A stretch of DNA of 64,000 bases from contig CACDVW010000002.1 of assembly GCA_902556355.1 (NCBI GenBank), positions 10,462 to 74,461 of the forward strand. Reading direction: 5' to 3'. Positions 39,203-62,553 of the stretch are shown in pieces (positions within the stretch are counted from its first letter, which is position 1; the number at the start of each line of letters is the position of its first letter). This stretch comes from an uncultured SAR86 cluster bacterium (GTDB lineage Bacteria; Pseudomonadota; Gammaproteobacteria; Magnimaribacterales; D2472). The position numbers and the translations under genes are program-made. The notes beneath the pieces were generated by a model that saw only the letters and a list, made by a program, of their open reading frames with translations, had not been told where the DNA came from and searched no databases.

Positions 39203-41419
39203 TTATCTCTTTATATTAGAAGCACTTTGTATTTGATCTCTTTTTATTCTTTCAATTTTCTTTTCTTCTATGATCTGATTTGCTTCAGAATTGGACTGAT
39301 TAGATAGATTTGATTGTAGCTGATCATATACACCGGCCCTGCCAATGTATGGATCGAATGTATAATTCGAATTGTCTAAAGAATGTGTTGACGATCTTGA
39401 AAATATAAATTCATATCCATCATCTCTTGAAGAAGTGCTTTGTGTTTGAAGACACTCAAGAAGATATGCTGAAGCTGAATATTCATCTAAAGAATAGCTG
39501 AAAATAGTTTCTCCATTCTGATAACAGCTTACATACCATGTCCAATATCCAGATTCTATAGTTGCATAAGCAGTTCCACCATTTACATTTTCTACCCAAT
39601 ATCCAACCCAACCAAATGAACCCTGGGAAATTTTTTCAATAGCGTAGTTATACATTTCATTTGCTACCCTAGTCAAAAGCTCAGATGTCATATTAAATTC
39701 ATTGTTTTCGAAACTGTAAATATATGGTTTATTTAAAAATTCATTAATGTATTCATTACCTATCTGATTAGGTGGTAAGTTATCTTGATCAAATTCTAGA
39801 AATCCGTATGCATCAGGAAAACTGTCAATGGTCTCATTATCCCAACTTAAATAAACTGCTGAATTATCATTATAAAATTTGACTGAGGACATCCATTTAT
39901 AATCTACATATGCATAAGCAGAATCACAACTTCCCTCGTAATCTAACCATATATCTGTACTCCTATTTCTGTACATGTCCATGGAATAAGAATCATCGTC
40001 ATAATTATTTGTGTCTGTGATTATGTAATGTTTGTAAACTTCACAAGAACTATCTATTGAGTTTATGTACTCATCCGTTTCCATTCTTTCTAAACCTCTG
40101 CTGGTTTCTTTTTGAAGCAAGTATGAAATTTCAGAATCATATAGTGCCGCAGAATCATCTCCAAAAAGATCACTAGCAATATTGAGTGTGCAGTAAGATG
40201 ATGGATTTACCCAACAAGGACGACTAGCCCTCATTAACTTATTATCGTTAGTAATAAACATTGGATTAATATGAATAAAAAAACTTTCATCCCATCCGTT
40301 GAGATTTGCAATGGATACATTTGAATTTGGATCGACATCTACCACAAAATCCCCTCTTAAAGAAATATCATCAACTGATGCAACCTCTTCCCCCAACCAT
40401 AACGATTCTGGATAATCATTGTCATTAAGAAAAATTAATAAATTGCTGTAATGAAGATCTGATGTCGATCTAATTGTGTAATCATTTGAAGAAAATCCTG
40501 TTCCCGATAAAGATGAATCAAGTAAAGATTTTACGTAAGTAATAATATCTGACTCTATTTGAGCCAATGACAGATAAAAACTATCAAGATCATTAAATCT
40601 AGAGGTTATGATTGAGGGTTTATTTGAATTTGACGGATTTTGTTTGATATCTAAATATGAGTATCCTGTCGCATTTTTTTGAAGCTCAATTGCGCTATCA
40701 AATTGATTAGTGATATATGCCTGTTTTTTACTATCAACTATATTACATGGGGTTTCACTATTATATAGATCAGCAGATAAATTAAATAACCCTGAAGATG
40801 TAAGGCTTTTAAATAATGAAGTAAAGCTTGAAATAGTCACATTGGTTTGATTTTGAGTAGGGTTTATGGAGTATAAATAAGAGTCATTAACAGCAACAGG
40901 ATAGTTTTTTAAACATTCTATATTTGCAGTTGACCTAATTTGAAAATTGCCATTAGAGTCTGATGTGCCTGAATATTCATAACTATCAAAAATCCTATTT
41001 TGGTTTTGATCAATATAAACTGTTCTATCTGTATTATCTTCATGAATGATTGTGCCTCCAATCAATAAATAGTTTGCAGTAATAGTTATAGACTTTGATG
41101 TTGATGATCCTTCACTATTTACACACCTCAATGTAAATCTGTAAGTCTTTGATTCATTCAAAGTCAAGCTATGGCTTCCATTTGTATTAACTGTTGTATT
41201 CCAATCGCCAGATGTAGAGCATGATTGCGCATTAGAAGTTGTCCAGCTAAAAGAATACTCAGATCCCACATCTATCTCATCTGATTGATTAGATGAAAAA
41301 TTAATCGTTGGTAAAGGAATTGCTGGAGATTCTGGTGATGCACTTCCTCCGCCTCCACCACCACCGCAGCTGGCAAGAATAAACAAAGGGGCTAATAGAT
41401 AAAAAAATATTTTTTTCAT
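39203..41419 (-). CDS. Large lipoprotein of unknown function (738 aa)
   Basis: Lipobox LFILAS-C followed by a G7 tether (CGGGGGGGSASPESP). An N-terminal Ig-like module follows (FSWTTSNAQSCSTSGDW...TLRCVN). The rest is Asn/Ser/Tyr/Asp/Trp-rich with paired cysteines. I recognise no family. Confidence 0.7.
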   Translation of the reverse strand: MKKIFFYLLAPLFILASCGGGGGGGSASPESPAIPLPTINFSSNQSDEIDVGSEYSFSWTTSNAQSCSTSGDWNTTVNTNGSHSLTLNESKTYRFTLRCVNSEGSSTSKSITITANYLLIGGTIIHEDNTDRTVYIDQNQNRIFDSYEYSGTSDSNGNFQIRSTANIECLKNYPVAVNDSYLYSINPTQNQTNVTISSFTSLFKSLTSSGLFNLSADLYNSETPCNIVDSKKQAYITNQFDSAIELQKNATGYSYLDIKQNPSNSNKPSIITSRFNDLDSFYLSLAQIESDIITYVKSLLDSSLSGTGFSSNDYTIRSTSDLHYSNLLIFLNDNDYPESLWLGEEVASVDDISLRGDFVVDVDPNSNVSIANLNGWDESFFIHINPMFITNDNKLMRASRPCWVNPSSYCTLNIASDLFGDDSAALYDSEISYLLQKETSRGLERMETDEYINSIDSSCEVYKHYIITDTNNYDDDSYSMDMYRNRSTDIWLDYEGSCDSAYAYVDYKWMSSVKFYNDNSAVYLSWDNETIDSFPDAYGFLEFDQDNLPPNQIGNEYINEFLNKPYIYSFENNEFNMTSELLTRVANEMYNYAIEKISQGSFGWVGYWVENVNGGTAYATIESGYWTWYVSCYQNGETIFSYSLDEYSASAYLLECLQTQSTSSRDDGYEFIFSRSSTHSLDNSNYTFDPYIGRAGVYDQLQSNLSNQSNSEANQIIEEKKIERIKRDQIQSASNIKR

Positions 41420-44158: not shown

Positions 44159-44227
44159 ACCAATAGTATAAATAAAAAAAATTTATACACTATAATCTTA
44201 GAAATATTTTTAGTATCAAAATTTATT

Positions 44228-45285: not shown

Positions 45286-45564
45286 ATGAATAAATACATT
45301 AAATCAAAACTAGTTTTATTTTTTGGAATTTTTTTCATTGCATCTCTTTCTGCTGATCCATTACTTCATGATCATATTGACGAGCATGAATCTGAATCTA
45401 TTGTTGAATGTCAACTTTGCGAAAACAAGACTGTTGATCTTAAAAATTCAGATTCAGAAATCAGCGAATTAATCCAAATTTCTTTTGTTGAAGAGTTAAC
45501 CCCTGATAATTCTTCTTTTAAAGACACAAGCAACTATCTATCTCGAGCTCCACCAAAAAAATAA
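45286..45564 (+). CDS. Small secreted protein with HDHIDEH and CQLC motifs (92 aa)
   Basis: Signal-peptide-like N-terminus (LVLFFGIFFIASLSA), then DPLLHDHIDEHESESIVECQLC. It lies 5 nt after adh and 41 nt before the His-rich receptor. No SD sequence, so the coding call is moderate. Confidence 0.55.
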   Translation: MNKYIKSKLVLFFGIFFIASLSADPLLHDHIDEHESESIVECQLCENKTVDLKNSDSEISELIQISFVEELTPDNSSFKDTSNYLSRAPPKK

Positions 45565-45605: not shown

Positions 45606-47858
45606 ATGAAAAAACTTTTAAGCACACTAATAATAATAGGTGCTATACACACAAACGAAATTGCTTCACAGGATGTTGAAGAGATTATCGTGGTTACGTC
45701 TGCTTTGATAGACACAACCGAAATTACAAACCCATTGTACGTTATAGACGGCGATGAGATTATCGATGATGCAACAACAAGCCTAGGAGATGCTATTGAT
45801 AGCTATCTTGGAGTTTCTATTGCAGATTATGGTGCTGCTGTTGGACAGCCAATAATTAGAGGCATGTCAGGTCCTAGAGTAAAAATTCTAAAAAATGGAA
45901 TGGTGAATAGAGATGTTTCTGGTCTTGGTGCAGATCACTTAAATGATGTTGATCTTAATGATATTGAACAAATAGAAATTGTTAAGGGTCCATCCTCATT
46001 ACTATATGCCAATGGAACTATTGGGGGAATCATTAATGTTGTAGATGACTGCATCGCAGCAATAAATTACGAGCTTCCTGAATTGAAAGTTGGTTATGAA
46101 ACTCAATCAGTGAATGATGGTTCATCTGAATTCATTAACTTTAAAAATAATTTCAATGGCTTTAACGTTAACTTTGGTTATAAAAATACTGAATTTGGAA
46201 ATTATGATATTCCCAATGGTGCGATAATGCATGAAGAGGAAGATCACGATGATCATGGTGATGAAGAACATCACGACGAAGATGAGCATGAAGAAAATCT
46301 CGGATTTGTTAATAATTCTGACTTTGCTGTAGAGGCTACGAAATTTGGTATTTCAAGAGCAGGTGACTGGGGTTATGTTGGTGTTTCAGTGGACAACCTT
46401 GAAAGTTTATATGGAATCCCTTTCCATGGTGACGATCATGGTGACGAACATGGAGATGAGCATGATGAGGATGAACATCACGACGAAGATGAGCATGATG
46501 AGGATGAGCATCACGATGAACATGGTGAGGAAAGAATTTTCTCAACAACAGATTCTGAAAGCTTTACTATAAAAGGTTCCTATAATGTTAATGGCAATTT
46601 AGTTAACAAAATTGACTATACATATAGAGATACTGAGTACACCTTAACTGAAGCGCATGCCGAAGAAGAGGGACATGATGAACATGAAGACGAAGAGGAA
46701 CATGAAGAACATGCTCCAACAGTTTTTGCTAACAATGCCACTGAATATGGTGCGATTTTTGATATCTCAAATGACATAAGAACTCAAAAATTATCATTTA
46801 ATTATGTTGATGAAGATTCTTCAATAGTTGGAGAAGAGGCATTCATGAATCCCGCAAATAATGAAGTTCTAACACTTGGTTATTTTTTAGGTCAAGATTT
46901 TGATATGTTTCATCTAGATTTGGGAATTAGATTAGATCAAGTTACAAGAACTGGAAGCGTTACTGATGAAGATCATGGCGATGTAGATAATTTTACTATC
47001 GATGATGATGTTTCAAGCTTTGCTGTCAGTATTGGAAGAGATCTTTCTGATACATTAGAGTTAAATCTCGGCTTTTCTAGCGTAGAGAGACTGCCATCTG
47101 TAATTGAATTATTTATGAATGGTCCTCATATGGCTACAGGTAGATTTGAAGTTGGAGATCCTACACTAAGTTCTGAAACTTCTAATAATTTTGATATTTC
47201 ATTAAATTTTGATAATGGAGAATATTTTGCAAGTGCAAGCTTCTTTATTAACGATGTAGATAACTATATTGCTTTAATTGATGAAGATGAAGACCATGAA
47301 GATGAGCATCATGAGGAAGAGCATCATGAAGATGAAGAAGAGCATCATGAAGATGAAGACGATCATGCAGACGAGCATGTTCATGGTCATGGCAATCTTA
47401 TTCATGCCAATTATGTTCAAGAAGATGCTGAGTTTGATGGATACGAAATTGAATTTGGAAGAACATTTGATTTAGGCGCTGGTGAAATGACATTATCTTT
47501 TGGTAGAGATGTTGTAAATGCTCAATTTACAGATGGTCATAACGTACCAAGAATAAATCCTGCAAGAAATGTTTATTCACTTTCATATGCTCAAGATGAC
47601 ATAGTCTTTAAGTTACATTTAAAAGATGTTGAAAAACAAAATGATGTTGGTGAAGGCGAAACAGCTACTGCCGGATATCAAATGCTGGACACAAGACTGA
47701 CTAAGACATTTGATTTAAGTGGAAAAAGTAAGCTTAAAGTTTCACTATTTGGAAGAAACCTTCTAGATGAGGTTGCAAGAAATCATGCTTCTTTTGTTAA
47801 AAATGAAGTTCCTCTTCCAGGAAGAAACTATGGAATTAAATTTAATTTAACTTACTAA
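45606..47858 (+). CDS. TonB-dependent outer-membrane receptor with four His/Asp/Glu-rich insertions (putative metal receptor)
   Basis: AAGGAG SD; signal peptide; TonB-box-like EEIIVVTS; plug (IEIVKGPSSLLYANGTIGGIINV); C-terminal barrel ending NYGIKFNLTY. His-rich patches lie at 46227-46296, 46425-46532, 46656-46712 and 47280-47405. Confidence 0.88.
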   Translation: MKKLLSTLIIIGAIHTNEIASQDVEEIIVVTSALIDTTEITNPLYVIDGDEIIDDATTSLGDAIDSYLGVSIADYGAAVGQPIIRGMSGPRVKILKNGMVNRDVSGLGADHLNDVDLNDIEQIEIVKGPSSLLYANGTIGGIINVVDDCIAAINYELPELKVGYETQSVNDGSSEFINFKNNFNGFNVNFGYKNTEFGNYDIPNGAIMHEEEDHDDHGDEEHHDEDEHEENLGFVNNSDFAVEATKFGISRAGDWGYVGVSVDNLESLYGIPFHGDDHGDEHGDEHDEDEHHDEDEHDEDEHHDEHGEERIFSTTDSESFTIKGSYNVNGNLVNKIDYTYRDTEYTLTEAHAEEEGHDEHEDEEEHEEHAPTVFANNATEYGAIFDISNDIRTQKLSFNYVDEDSSIVGEEAFMNPANNEVLTLGYFLGQDFDMFHLDLGIRLDQVTRTGSVTDEDHGDVDNFTIDDDVSSFAVSIGRDLSDTLELNLGFSSVERLPSVIELFMNGPHMATGRFEVGDPTLSSETSNNFDISLNFDNGEYFASASFFINDVDNYIALIDEDEDHEDEHHEEEHHEDEEEHHEDEDDHADEHVHGHGNLIHANYVQEDAEFDGYEIEFGRTFDLGAGEMTLSFGRDVVNAQFTDGHNVPRINPARNVYSLSYAQDDIVFKLHLKDVEKQNDVGEGETATAGYQMLDTRLTKTFDLSGKSKLKVSLFGRNLLDEVARNHASFVKNEVPLPGRNYGIKFNLTY
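46455..46520 (+). repeat. Tandem 33-nt (11-codon) duplication encoding DEHDEDEHHDE x2 inside the receptor
   Basis: 46455-46487 and 46488-46520 differ at 2 positions. Confidence 0.9.
47319..47360 (+). repeat. Tandem 21-nt (7-codon) duplication encoding EHHEDEE/D x2 inside the receptor
   Basis: 47319-47339 and 47340-47360 differ at 1 position. Confidence 0.9.
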
Positions 47859-47924: not shown

Positions 47925-48329
47925 ATGAAATCACAACTTACATCAGATAAATTTGCAATGTCGTTTTCAGCTATATGCATGATTCATTGCCTATTTGCTC
48001 CATCTTTAATAATTTTTTCATATAGCTCTTTGGCATTAACTGTCGAAAGTGAGCTTATTCATAAAGCTATATTGCTTTTAACTATTCCAGTTAGCATCTT
48101 TGCAATTAGCTTGGGATATAAAAATCATTCAAATAACTCCATTATTTATACTGGCATTGCTGGATTAACAATTCTTATTTCAGCGCTCTTAGTTGGAGAA
48201 AGTATTGGTGAAAATGCAGAACTAATTTTAACTATTATTGGTTCACTGATGGTAATTGCATGTCATTACAGAAACTATCGAATCTGTAAAAAAGTAAATT
48301 GTGACTGTCACGAAACTTCAGAAGCTTAA
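47925..48329 (+). CDS. Small 4-TM membrane protein with Cys/His motifs, MerC-like
   Basis: 134 aa. The N-terminal DKFAMSFSAICMIHCLFAP resembles, from my memory, the LCxxHCxxxP start of MerC-domain proteins. Four hydrophobic segments, ACHY in the last TM, cytoplasmic tail CDCH. No HMM was run. Confidence 0.55.
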   Translation: MKSQLTSDKFAMSFSAICMIHCLFAPSLIIFSYSSLALTVESELIHKAILLLTIPVSIFAISLGYKNHSNNSIIYTGIAGLTILISALLVGESIGENAELILTIIGSLMVIACHYRNYRICKKVNCDCHETSEA

Positions 48330-48405
48330 AATTTTAAATTCTAAAATTTTCATTAATTACTTTCATAGCAAATATATTGTAGAATGCGCTCTTTTACGTC
48401 ATAAC

Positions 48406-50997
48406 ATGATTAAACATATTAAATTCATATACTTATTATTATTAAGTCCATTCATCATGGCTAACTCAAATGTTGAAGAGATAGTTACAACTGGGTCATT
48501 AATTAATAATTCAGAAAAAGATGCATCACCAGTAAATGTTATAACTAAAGAAGATTTTGAAAATTTTAATATTTCTAATTTTGCAGAAATTAGCAAATAC
48601 CTAACATCATCATCTGGTTCGCATTTCCAAACAAATGCACTTGAGGGAGTTGATCAAGGAATGGCCTCAATAACCTTAAGAGGTTTAGATCACTCCTCTA
48701 CTCTGCTGCTACTTAATTCAAAGAGACATACTTTTGCTGGAACACCCTCAAATCAAGGTGAAGGATACATAGATGTAAACATAGTTCCTGAAATAGCAAT
48801 CAAGCAAATTGAAGTTTTAAAAGAAGGAGCTACTTCACTATATGGATCTGATGCCGTTGCAGGTGTTGTAAATGTTTTAACTCAGAAAGATTTTGAAGGA
48901 TTTAAATTAAGAATTAATAACTTTGAAACTTTAAATTATAGTCAGAGTGATAAATCTTTAGGTTTATTAGTAGGATCAAATTACAAAAATGGTAGCTACG
49001 TATTTGGTCTTAATATACTAGAAAGATCAGCTCTGTCTGCCTCTGAAATACCTGGAATAGCAGAACTTGGTCTTAGTGGCTTAGGTAAAACCTTTAAAAT
49101 TTCTTCTGATGATACGGTTAGTGACGGTTTATATTCAGGTAATTATAATGCTAATCAATTTGTACCTGACCCTGAATGTGAGGCAAATGGAGGCGTATTA
49201 GATGGATCTTTTTGCAGATTCTTATACGGTACCAGATTTAATATAGTGAATGATGAAGATCATTCCAAGGCATATGCCAATTTATTGTTTGAAAGAAGCA
49301 ATTATGTTTATGAGATAACCTTTATGGGATCAGCTGTTGAAGTAAATGATAACCCTCAATCACCCTCATACCCCGCTCTTCCTTTTTTATCGAGACAAAT
49401 TCAACCAAATCAAGGTGGAAATCCTTTTAATGTCCCAGTTACTTGGTATGGACGCCCTCTTGGATCTGAATTTGATTCCCCATATTCTCCTAAGGATATA
49501 AAACAATATAATCTTAGTCAGACAATCAATACTAATATTAATGAAAGCACTGAACTAGAGGCCTCTTTAACTACTAGCAGTCACTCTAATGATCATTACA
49601 GGCCAGATATTATCGATTCGAGGTTCCTAGAAGCATTAAATGGTACAACCATGGGACAATCTAATGGAAGTCTTATGTATTGGAATATTTTTGATTCATC
49701 TCAAAATTCTCAAGATTTAATTGATTATGTAAAAGGTGCAGAGGTTTCGTCAAAAGAAGCATCTTTAACAACTCTTGATTTTATATTTAGAACTAACATA
49801 GATAACTACGAAATTGCTTATGGTCTTCAGCTGAATGATGAAGAGCTTAAAATTTCATACGATGATGTTAGTAGAGCTCAGTTTGATTCAGATGGCAAAA
49901 TTATTAAATCAGCAGATCTATTCTTTTTGGGTGGAGGTATAAATGTCTCAAAAAATAGAAATAAATATGCTGGTTTTTTTGAAATTCAGCCCAAGCCAAT
50001 AGAAAAAATTGATATCAAAATTGCTGGTAGATTTGAAGAGTTTGAGAATGACTCATCATTTGACCCTAAAATCTCTTTTAAATATATCGCATCTGAAAAT
50101 ATAACTTTAAGGGCTTCTAGAAGTTCATCTTTTTCTATGCCCTCCATGGCACAAATGTTTTCAAGTGATATTAACCTAGGAAGCGTAAGAGACTTTGACG
50201 GCAATTCACCATTTGTTAGGCAAGCACAAATCGGTAACCCAAACCTTAAACCTGCAACCTCTAAAAATTTAAATATTGGACTTATTTATGAAAATCAAAA
50301 ACATAGACTCAGTATTGATTATTGGAATATCGATTACAAAAATAGAATAGAGGCTCAAAGTGCACAAGTAATTCTTAATACAGACCCAAATGGTCCAAGT
50401 ATTACAAGAAATTCTAATGGCGATTTAATTGGAGTCACGACAACCTATTTCAATGAAGAGTCAACTGAAGTTTCAGGAGTTGATATAAGTTTTAATAGAC
50501 TTTTAGCAAGCTCAGATAAATTTGGAAATGTATCACTATCAGTAAACTCAACAACTTTAATAGAATTTCTTACACCAGCTCTTGGAAATGAAGGTGGTGA
50601 AATCATGATAAATAGAGTTGGTAAATTTAATTACGATACTAATACCCATTCTCTTCCCAAAAATAGAATCAATGCTTTTTTAAATTGGAATTATCAAGAT
50701 TACGATATTAATTTAAATTCACGATATATTGATGGGTATAGCAATGAGCGGCCGATTAATAGTCTTGGAACATCATATGGATATAACAATTCTGTAGATT
50801 CATTTTTTGTTCATGACCTTTCAGTAAAAAAATTGTTAATAACAAATAAAGGTGAAATTGATATCAAGCTATCGGTCATTAATGTTTTTGATGAGGCAGC
50901 TCCAAGACTTTATGACGCTCCAGATTTTAGCTTTGATACAAGGGTTCATGATCCAAGAGGAAGAATTATTGGTATAAGTTTTGAGTATAGAAACTAA
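48406..50997 (+). CDS. TonB-dependent outer-membrane receptor (863 aa)
   Basis: Start placed at MIKHIKFIYLLLLSPFIMA (signal peptide). TonB box EEIVTTGS, plug IEVLKEGATSLYGSDAVAGVVNV, long barrel. The ORF-track start at 48301 overlaps the previous gene. Confidence 0.85.
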   Translation: MIKHIKFIYLLLLSPFIMANSNVEEIVTTGSLINNSEKDASPVNVITKEDFENFNISNFAEISKYLTSSSGSHFQTNALEGVDQGMASITLRGLDHSSTLLLLNSKRHTFAGTPSNQGEGYIDVNIVPEIAIKQIEVLKEGATSLYGSDAVAGVVNVLTQKDFEGFKLRINNFETLNYSQSDKSLGLLVGSNYKNGSYVFGLNILERSALSASEIPGIAELGLSGLGKTFKISSDDTVSDGLYSGNYNANQFVPDPECEANGGVLDGSFCRFLYGTRFNIVNDEDHSKAYANLLFERSNYVYEITFMGSAVEVNDNPQSPSYPALPFLSRQIQPNQGGNPFNVPVTWYGRPLGSEFDSPYSPKDIKQYNLSQTINTNINESTELEASLTTSSHSNDHYRPDIIDSRFLEALNGTTMGQSNGSLMYWNIFDSSQNSQDLIDYVKGAEVSSKEASLTTLDFIFRTNIDNYEIAYGLQLNDEELKISYDDVSRAQFDSDGKIIKSADLFFLGGGINVSKNRNKYAGFFEIQPKPIEKIDIKIAGRFEEFENDSSFDPKISFKYIASENITLRASRSSSFSMPSMAQMFSSDINLGSVRDFDGNSPFVRQAQIGNPNLKPATSKNLNIGLIYENQKHRLSIDYWNIDYKNRIEAQSAQVILNTDPNGPSITRNSNGDLIGVTTTYFNEESTEVSGVDISFNRLLASSDKFGNVSLSVNSTTLIEFLTPALGNEGGEIMINRVGKFNYDTNTHSLPKNRINAFLNWNYQDYDINLNSRYIDGYSNERPINSLGTSYGYNNSVDSFFVHDLSVKKLLITNKGEIDIKLSVINVFDEAAPRLYDAPDFSFDTRVHDPRGRIIGISFEYRN

Positions 50998-57923: not shown

Positions 57924-60828
<2,905 letters not shown>

Positions 60829-60963
60829 TTAAAAAAGGTTACTTAATTATTTTTTTGAGAGTAACTTAATAAAATATTATTAATTACTTTTTAATTGCAG
60901 TGATCTTATGTATGCATACGCATACACTAGAAAATTACATACCAATAATTTTACATAACTATA

Positions 60964-61000
60964 TGTTCTTTCTTAATATTTGATTACTCGTGTGGGCGTT
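60964..61000 (-). other. Spacer half of the long 16S-flanking processing stem
   Basis: Complementary to the leader segment 62612-62649: 37 positions, one 3-nt internal mismatch and two G-U pairs. Confidence 0.7.
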
Positions 61001-61019
61001 TAAAACGCGAATTTATCGT

Positions 61020-62553
<1,534 letters not shown>

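Follow-up and report, generated by a model that had tools for sequence, protein, structure and literature searches.

We analysed a 64-kb window of DNA (64,000 nucleotides (nt); contig CACDVW010000002.1, positions 10,462 to 74,461, forward strand) from an uncultured SAR86 cluster bacterium, and found in it a gene for a ZnuD-family TonB-dependent receptor of 750 amino acids (aa), in which four predicted surface loops carry patches rich in His, Asp and Glu. We consider it probable that these patches are exposed at the surface and feed a ZnuD-type metal uptake, that the length of the loops is driven by repeats in the coding DNA, and that the composition of the patches is under selection. In the surface ocean SAR86 ranks among the most abundant heterotrophic bacteria, and the acquisition of zinc and other trace metals by streamlined cells at sub-nanomolar levels is poorly known. 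The locus suggests a ZnuD-type receptor with a greatly enlarged putative metal-capturing surface, which might be readily resized by repeat slippage. The gene and the putative TonB box at its start are as follows.

45606-47858, + strand: ZnuD-family TonB-dependent receptor gene of SAR86, 750 aa (open reading frame (ORF) with Pfam, NCBIfam and PDB matches)
45678-45701, + strand: putative TonB box EEIIVVTS, aa 25-32, after a putative signal peptide (read from the sequence by the usual TonB-box pattern)

Receptor family and homologues

The receptor contained the Pfam domains Plug (8e-20) and TonB_dep_Rec_b-barrel (7e-26), and its top NCBIfam match was ZnuD (E = 1e-62, 212.6 bits). In a phmmer search against PDB, ZnuD (4rdr) came first with E = 7e-33 and the runner-up reached 2e-07. 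A family profile built from 30 diverse members separated them further, giving 2.9e-141 for ZnuD 4rdr, 7e-33 for the runner-up PhuR and 1e-23 for the copper receptor OprC. The N-terminus is hydrophobic and is followed by EEIIVVTS, which by eye resembles the usual pattern of a signal peptide and TonB box. Judged from these matches, the protein is a TonB-dependent receptor whose nearest known relative is ZnuD, and not the receptors for haem, siderophores, B12 or copper.

The G+C content of the window is 34%, consistent with SAR86 origin. Proteins 95-98% identical to the receptor, in DNA about 95% identical over 14 kb, were found in SAR86 single-cell genomes. Orthologues are present across SAR86 at 50-98% identity, and outside SAR86 in the PS1 and OCS116 alphaproteobacteria (~46%) and in Halieaceae (43%).

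Position of the patches in the predicted structure

All four patch peptides proposed by an earlier reading of this DNA from sequence only (hereafter the sequence-only reading) were found as written in the translation of 45606-47858. The coordinates given there were exact for patches 2, 3 and 4, and patch 1 had been placed slightly too early, as position 46227 begins an ATG for the Met in front of the first His. A rudimentary fifth patch was found in loop L6. The patches are listed with the segments of the structural model that had a predicted local distance difference test (pLDDT) score below 50.

46230-46295, + strand: patch 1, HEEEDHDDHGDEEHHDEDEHEE, 22 aa, loop L2, between strands 3 and 4 (translation; pLDDT <50 at aa 211-230)
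46425-46532, + strand: patch 2, 36 aa, loop L3, between strands 5 and 6 (translation; pLDDT <50 at aa 275-307)
46656-46712, + strand: patch 3, HAEEEGHDEHEDEEEHEEH, loop L4, between strands 7 and 8 (translation; pLDDT <50 at aa 353-368)
47280-47405, + strand: patch 4, 42 aa, loop L8, between strands 15 and 16 (translation; pLDDT <50 at aa 562-596)
46962-46988, + strand: rudimentary fifth patch TDEDHGDVD, loop L6, between the strands at 436-453 and 460-479 (repeat family D3)

An AlphaFold2 model made from a 90-sequence alignment (mean pLDDT 76.6, predicted template modelling score 0.79) showed a 22-strand barrel. Outside the N-terminus, pLDDT fell below 50 only in the four segments listed above, which are the four patches. 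Patch 1 is flanked by strands at 186-197 and 240-253 and patch 2 by strands at 256-271 and 310-327, and the periplasmic turns between the patch-bearing strand pairs are only 2-7 residues long. By the standard topology of such receptors, the patches are, in this model, disordered extracellular loops L2, L3, L4 and L8. Mapping onto a predicted barrel, which the sequence-only reading had proposed as a check, thus placed every patch in a loop. The loop numbers match those published for ZnuD (L3 = 233-309, L6 = 430-459 and L11 = 706-722; PMC4557270) when transferred through the profile alignment. In more distant relatives (P0121, P0123, P0124) a full His/Asp/Glu patch of 27-32 aa was found at the L6 position.

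Foldseek with the model gave ZnuD as the top four matches (E = 1e-41 to 7e-38, target-normalised template modelling score 0.80-0.92). The top listed matches were all TonB-dependent receptors, and the second-best structural match was OprC.

Predicted zinc ligands and the ZnuD loop clusters

In ZnuD the high-affinity zinc ligands are Asp-99, His-100 and Glu-340, together with His-499 (PMC4557270). In both the phmmer and the profile alignments to 4rdr these pair with D110, H111, E349 and H508 of the SAR86 receptor. All four columns were invariant in alignment A1 (the 30 diverse members); in alignment A2, D110, H111 and H508 were invariant and E349 was at least 90% conserved. Patch 3 starts two residues past E349. 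The predicted ligands are:

45933-45938, + strand: D110-H111, apical loop of the plug, equivalent to ZnuD Asp-99 and His-100 (phmmer and profile alignments to 4rdr)
46650-46652, + strand: E349, equivalent to ZnuD Glu-340, in the motif DYxHxE (profile alignment to 4rdr)
47127-47129, + strand: H508, in the NGPH motif of loop L7, equivalent to ZnuD His-499 (alignments to 4rdr)

Loop 3 of ZnuD contains two His/Asp/Glu clusters, 241-HSHEYDDCHAD-251 and 288-HDDDNAHAHTH-298 (PMC4557270). In the phmmer alignment, the start of patch 2 (HGDDHGDEHGD) is aligned with the first of them, a cluster to which Cd/Zn is bound in the ZnuD crystal. With this alignment and the conserved zinc ligands, a metal-binding role of the patches is plausible. 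In the profile alignment, loops L2, L4 and L8 of Neisseria ZnuD are short and poor in His, so patches 1, 3 and 4 are expansions specific to the marine branch.

Repeats within the patches

The DNA of the patches consists of few codons (CAT, GAT, GAA, GAG) arranged in short repeats. The sequence-only reading had described a 33-nt tandem unit in patch 2 and a 21-nt tandem unit in patch 4, and both were recovered. The copies at 46455-46487 and 46488-46520 have two differences (Tandem Repeats Finder: period 33, 92% match), and those at 47319-47339 and 47340-47360 have one (period 21, 2.7 copies, 91%). The same program delimited two arrays:

46425-46472, + strand: 12-nt array CAT GGN GAN GAN (HGDx) in patch 2 (Tandem Repeats Finder)
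47311-47366, + strand: array of the 21-nt unit in patch 4 (Tandem Repeats Finder)

A 23-nt string reported as common to patches 1 and 2 indeed occurs exactly twice in the window, at 46269 and 46476; the common stretch extends from 23 to 26 nt, and by chance none would be expected in the window. Outside this gene, no further patch of such kind was found in any other reading frame of the 64-kb window.

With two codons each for His, Asp and Glu, such DNA is inherently repetitive, and we therefore tested the repeats against chance. Of 2000 codon shuffles inside each patch, none reached the 33-nt repeat, 8 reached the 21-nt repeat and none reached the 26-nt string; since shuffled codons rarely or never reach the repeats, the codon order in the patches is non-random. 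When only synonymous codons were redrawn with the amino acids fixed, the P values were 0.16 (33-nt), 0.06 (21-nt) and 0.016 (shared string). The synonymous identity is thus unremarkable, and the DNA alone gives no proof of recent duplication. In addition, both the 33-nt and the 21-nt duplication are present in nearly all relatives of about 87% identity or more. The description of these duplications as recent was therefore not upheld.

Length variation among relatives

Two sets of relatives were compared: 120 database proteins with 86-98% identity and a total length of 719-761 aa, the shortest few of which cover only 96-97% of the query and are possibly truncated, and 42 DNA sequences with at least 80% identity from single-cell genomes, metagenome-assembled genomes and metagenomes. 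Lengths were measured in anchored windows, each being the patch plus about 4 flanking residues per side. Among the 120 proteins these windows ranged over 21-30 aa (patch 1), 20-46 aa (patch 2), 25-32 aa (patch 3) and 36-52 aa (patch 4), so the suggestion that patch length is polymorphic holds for all four patches. Internal indels beyond the patches were found at two small sites only. Length variants were seen between sequences as close as 97-98% identity (P0001, P0004, P0005 and locus L002). Patch 3 variation in close relatives includes a duplication of EGHDEH, and no segment of the protein varies more than patch 4.

In the 42 DNA sequences, every patch haplotype had a length that is a multiple of 3. 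Several of the indels were repeat units. In patch 2 these were 12-nt units, 83-92% identical to the adjacent copy, and there were larger deletions besides. In patch 4 they were a 15-nt unit (87% identical to the adjacent copy) and 21-nt units (81-95% identical to the neighbour, for example L101 against L098), and L092 had a perfect 33-nt tandem duplication in patch 4. Such in-frame unit indels, near-identical to adjacent copies, are the footprint expected from the expansion and contraction by slipped strands or recombination that the sequence-only reading had put forward, and they are the signature of slippage or unequal recombination. Of the two units that had been named as sites of variation, the 21-nt (7-aa) one indeed differs in copy number between relatives; the 33-nt unit was never found in one or three copies.

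Assembly artefact was rejected as the source of these variants, because the units are shorter than the reads and identical variants appear repeatedly, in up to 14-26 independent assemblies. Phase variation by contingency repeats was also rejected: all alleles are in frame and none is frameshifted, and the repeats alter the length of the loops, not expression.

A group of relatives at 82-87% identity (L092, L004, L087, L083 and L100) has radically different patch-4 alleles between conserved flanks. These alleles are Gly-, Pro- or Cys-rich, for example DHDGHDPHGGDDDGDDPHDGDDDGQHPPHD and HEGEEEGEHEGCHEEDDDDH...PHPHPELELIC. They may have arisen by compensated frameshifts or by recombination. In the same group patch 2 is shrunk to HGEEHPEEDGEPHEDE.

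Composition of the patches

Among 127 orthologues (40-98% identity) the patches consist of 34% Glu, 27% Asp, 24% His and 10% Gly. Lys accounts for 0.3% of the patches against 3.5% of the rest of the protein, Asn for 0.5% against 8.5% and Tyr for 0.1% against 4.5%; taken together, Lys, Asn, Tyr and Gln are at 0.1-0.5% each in the patches and at 1.9-8.5% elsewhere. These four residues are a single mutation away from the patch codons, and AT-biased mutation favours them. The genome in which this composition is maintained has a G+C content of 34%. The patch sequences themselves are nearly all distinct among the 127 orthologues and the length of L3 ranges over 15-45 aa. Because composition stays constant while sequence and length vary, selection would act on composition and not on sequence. 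This argues for purifying selection on patch composition, contrary to the view of the patches as neutral junk.

The total number of loop His residues is 14-39 among the orthologues and about 32 in the receptor of the window. In the wider family, 100 of 129 full-length representatives at 50% identity have at least one His/Asp/Glu patch, and 31 of 129 have at least three. Loops L7, L9, L10 and L11 are well conserved among the same sequences.

Proposed mechanism and alternative explanations

Loops L2, L3, L4 and L8 would most likely form a low-affinity "fishing net" of His and carboxylate sites, by analogy with loop 3 of ZnuD, and would thereby enrich a divalent trace metal at the cell surface. 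This metal is most probably zinc, and Co, Cd and Ni are also possible. The metal would then be handed on to the buried site of high affinity formed by D110, H111, E349 and H508, and TonB-driven movement of the plug would admit it to the periplasm. At the DNA level, the repeat-built coding sequence would gain or lose units of 12-33 nt by replication slippage or unequal recombination, and selection would purge frameshifts and residues that are neither His nor acidic and would tolerate broad lengths and sequences. The sequence comparisons and the model show the family of the receptor, the conservation of the ligand positions, the place and disorder of the loops, the polymorphism in length, the unit indels and the constraint on composition; from these we infer metal binding, the identity of the metal, its hand-over to the buried site and an adaptive value of the differences in length.

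Several points weigh against this mechanism. Seawater has about 50 mM Mg2+ and 10 mM Ca2+, which would compete for the carboxylates. In a clade at 75-85% identity, L2 and L3 are much shorter and the loops have only about 16 His in all, which means that long His/acid tracts are dispensable, and the same clade has Pro/Gly-rich patch-4 alleles. Identity to Neisseria ZnuD is only about 20%, and with 212.6 bits the receptor misses the 950-bit cut-off of NF038289 (NCBIfam ZnuD "zinc piracy"), so that by its score it is outside the narrow Neisseria-type group. No znuABC, zur or COG0523 gene was found near the receptor. A Zur-box core GTTATAWTATAAC (at most 2 mismatches) was not found in the window, the core being gamma-proteobacterial and perhaps not that of SAR86, and GTTATANTATAAC was not found in any of 158 related loci, which is a weak negative as the SAR86 Zur motif may differ.

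The regulatory and genomic points among these bear on the identity of the substrate. The receptor might take up Co, Ni, Cd, Cu, Fe(II), a metal chelate or haem, with the patches serving that substrate or docking a secreted partner, and we regard this as unlikely, though of all the alternatives it deserves the most serious attention. His/carboxylate sites discriminate poorly among divalent metals. The neighbouring genes are MerC-like and DUF2946-like and not ZnuABC, the Zur box was missing from the window and the 158 loci, and after ZnuD the nearest relatives by structure are OprC, a copper receptor, and haem receptors. The crystals of ZnuD also bind Cd (PMC4557270). On the other hand, all four zinc ligands of ZnuD are conserved, the profile match to ZnuD is about 100 orders of magnitude better than to any receptor for haem or copper, and there is no positive sign of a Cys/Met site of the OprC type (which was not searched for).

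The other two alternatives concern the patches themselves. They might be neutral low-complexity expansions, slippage-prone repeats tolerated in unconstrained surface loops and capturing no metal, and their disorder, their highly variable length and sequence, the unit indels typical of slippage and the clade that does well with much shorter L2 and L3 would all fit. However, the patches are kept in the same four loops with the same composition over 40-98% identity, and also in some relatives at 27-29%, Lys, Asn, Tyr and Gln are nearly missing though one mutation away, and patch 2 lies at the position of the ZnuD metal-binding clusters; we therefore hold neutral expansion to be distinctly improbable. 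Diversifying selection on an exposed protein, for escape from phages or grazers and with metal binding secondary or absent, seems to us very improbable. TonB-dependent receptors often serve as phage receptors, and patch 4, the most variable part of the protein, has radically different alleles in a clade at 82-84% identity. But the conservation of L7, L9, L10 and L11 means that there is no general diversification of the surface, and the variation is confined to repeat-bearing loops that keep a strict His/Asp/Glu/Gly composition, which is unexpected for escape. The metal-capturing patches with repeat-driven length thus remain our preferred explanation.

Comparison with known receptors and metal-binding loops

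The closest known system is ZnuD of N. meningitidis (PDB 4RDR/4RDT/4RVW), which is likewise a 22-strand TonB-dependent receptor with a plug and is the best match by sequence, profile and fold. Its loop-3 clusters bind Cd/Zn or, in simulations, sweep through the medium, and were called a "fishing net" (PMC4557270, 2015). His/Asp-rich stretches in loop 3 had been noticed earlier in ZnuD and all pathogen homologues and tied to the His-rich loop of ZnuA (PMC2895646, 2010). Both receptors thus have a flexible loop 3 rich in His, Asp and Glu, which binds metal in ZnuD and corresponds by alignment to patch 2 here.

ZnuD has two 11-aa clusters, in L3 only, joined via a disulfide, whereas the SAR86 receptor has four patches of 19-42 aa, a rudiment in L6, about 32 His and no Cys. 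Unlike those of ZnuD, the SAR86 patches are built from tandem codon repeats, and neither znuABC nor a Zur box was found near the SAR86 locus. In meningococci, ZnuD shows 97-99% conservation and its differences are not clustered in loops (PMC2895646), while the loop length in SAR86 varies between close relatives.

The His-rich loop of ZnuA is also similar, as a disordered His/acidic loop thought to capture or sense zinc for a high-affinity site, and both ZnuD papers draw this analogy (PMC2895646, PMC4557270). ZnuA differs from the SAR86 receptor in fold and in cell compartment, and has a single loop. OprC of Pseudomonas aeruginosa is a TonB-dependent receptor which takes up ionic metal without a chelator. 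It has neighbours of the DUF2946 type, and a small secreted CxxC/RAPP-like protein stands beside the SAR86 receptor, although the DUF2946 match, obtained with a distant homologue, is faint (E = 0.037). Unlike OprC, the SAR86 receptor conserves the ZnuD tetrad, and the profile match to OprC is far weaker (1e-23 against 2.9e-141).

His/acid-rich flexible loops on a zinc receptor are already established for ZnuD, and the advance here would be one of degree and ecology, not of kind. The SAR86 receptor is set apart by its scale, the construction from tandem codon repeats, the length variation at strain level, the SAR86 host and the gene neighbourhood, and we found no paper describing them. A search of the literature for His-rich loops in ZnuD-type receptors of SAR86 or marine origin, or for a link between MerC, Zur and a receptor, gave nothing specific, and the Caulobacter Zur paper contains no discussion of His-rich receptor loops.

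Taking all observations together, we could imagine that the four loops are an evolvable "metal antenna" (14-39 His), tuned by repeats to the local metal supply, with long antennae in open-ocean lineages and short ones elsewhere, and that the receptor, the HxH/CxxC protein and the MerC-family permease form a previously undescribed import route independent of ZnuABC. As a whole this picture is speculative and rather unlikely. Loop length could become a simple, countable genomic marker to set against measured metal concentrations in the ocean.

Gene neighbourhood and regulation

The genes near the receptor are housekeeping genes, a MerC-like gene and a second receptor gene. The direct neighbours and the MerC-family genes of relatives are listed here.

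45286-45564, + strand: upstream partner, 92-aa secreted protein with HxH, ECxxC and C-terminal SRAPP, weakly DUF2946-like
47925-48329, + strand: MerC-family membrane protein with Cys/His-rich C-terminal tail (Pfam MerC, E = 8e-25)
L039, 5303-5689: MerC-family gene adjacent to the receptor
L040, 5296-5688: MerC-family gene adjacent to the receptor
L075, 5149-5520: MerC-family gene adjacent to the receptor

The preceding gene ends 5 nt ahead of the 92-aa ORF, which in turn is separated from the receptor by 41 nt and encodes a signal peptide, HDHIDEHE, ECQLC and a C-terminal SRAPPKK. Homologues with HxH, ECxxC and SRAPP immediately precede the receptor in most SAR86 loci, in the PS1-clade locus L039 and in more distant relatives. 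For the family of this ORF, Pfam gave only a faint DUF2946 match in a distant homologue (E = 0.037), and NCBIfam gave no match.

In the closest SAR86 clade the MerC-family gene adjoins the receptor on its downstream side; in PS1, OCS116 and HTCC2080 it is adjacent on the upstream side. This adjacency, kept despite the altered gene order, suggests a functional link between MerC-family protein and receptor, and it is possible that the protein is a metal permease of the inner membrane. A putative uptake pathway independent of ZnuABC is suggested by the conserved pairing of the receptor with a small secreted Cys/His protein and a MerC-family protein.

Downstream of the MerC-like gene is a second TonB-dependent receptor gene (48301-50997, + strand; 898 aa) without His/acid patches. 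Counted from its predicted GTG start, it shares 29 nt with the end of the MerC-like gene, and its synteny extends to most SAR86 loci (52-96% identity).

When the promoter region ahead of the alcohol dehydrogenase gene was aligned, a promoter-like AT-rich block was found, conserved in the closest relatives only. Between the divergent genes for the amidohydrolase and the alcohol dehydrogenase, the intergenic DNA at 44159-44227 contains a perfect 8-bp inverted repeat, GTATAAAT-N7-ATTTATAC, beside a TATAAT box. The inverted repeat is not a canonical Zur box. The block at 44159-44227 may be the promoter/operator for the alcohol dehydrogenase, small ORF and receptor genes.

Other features of the window

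A 738-aa ORF at 39203-41419 (- strand) matched no Pfam family at E <= 1e-4. The regions at about 8300-37400 (- strand) and about 58000-62000, which we took as signs of a chromosomal, housekeeping neighbourhood, hold a large cluster of small minus-strand ORFs with two ORFs of about 1350-1390 aa, a layout consistent with a putative ribosomal-protein/RNA-polymerase operon, and a G+C-rich stretch (46-50%) that is likely an rRNA region.

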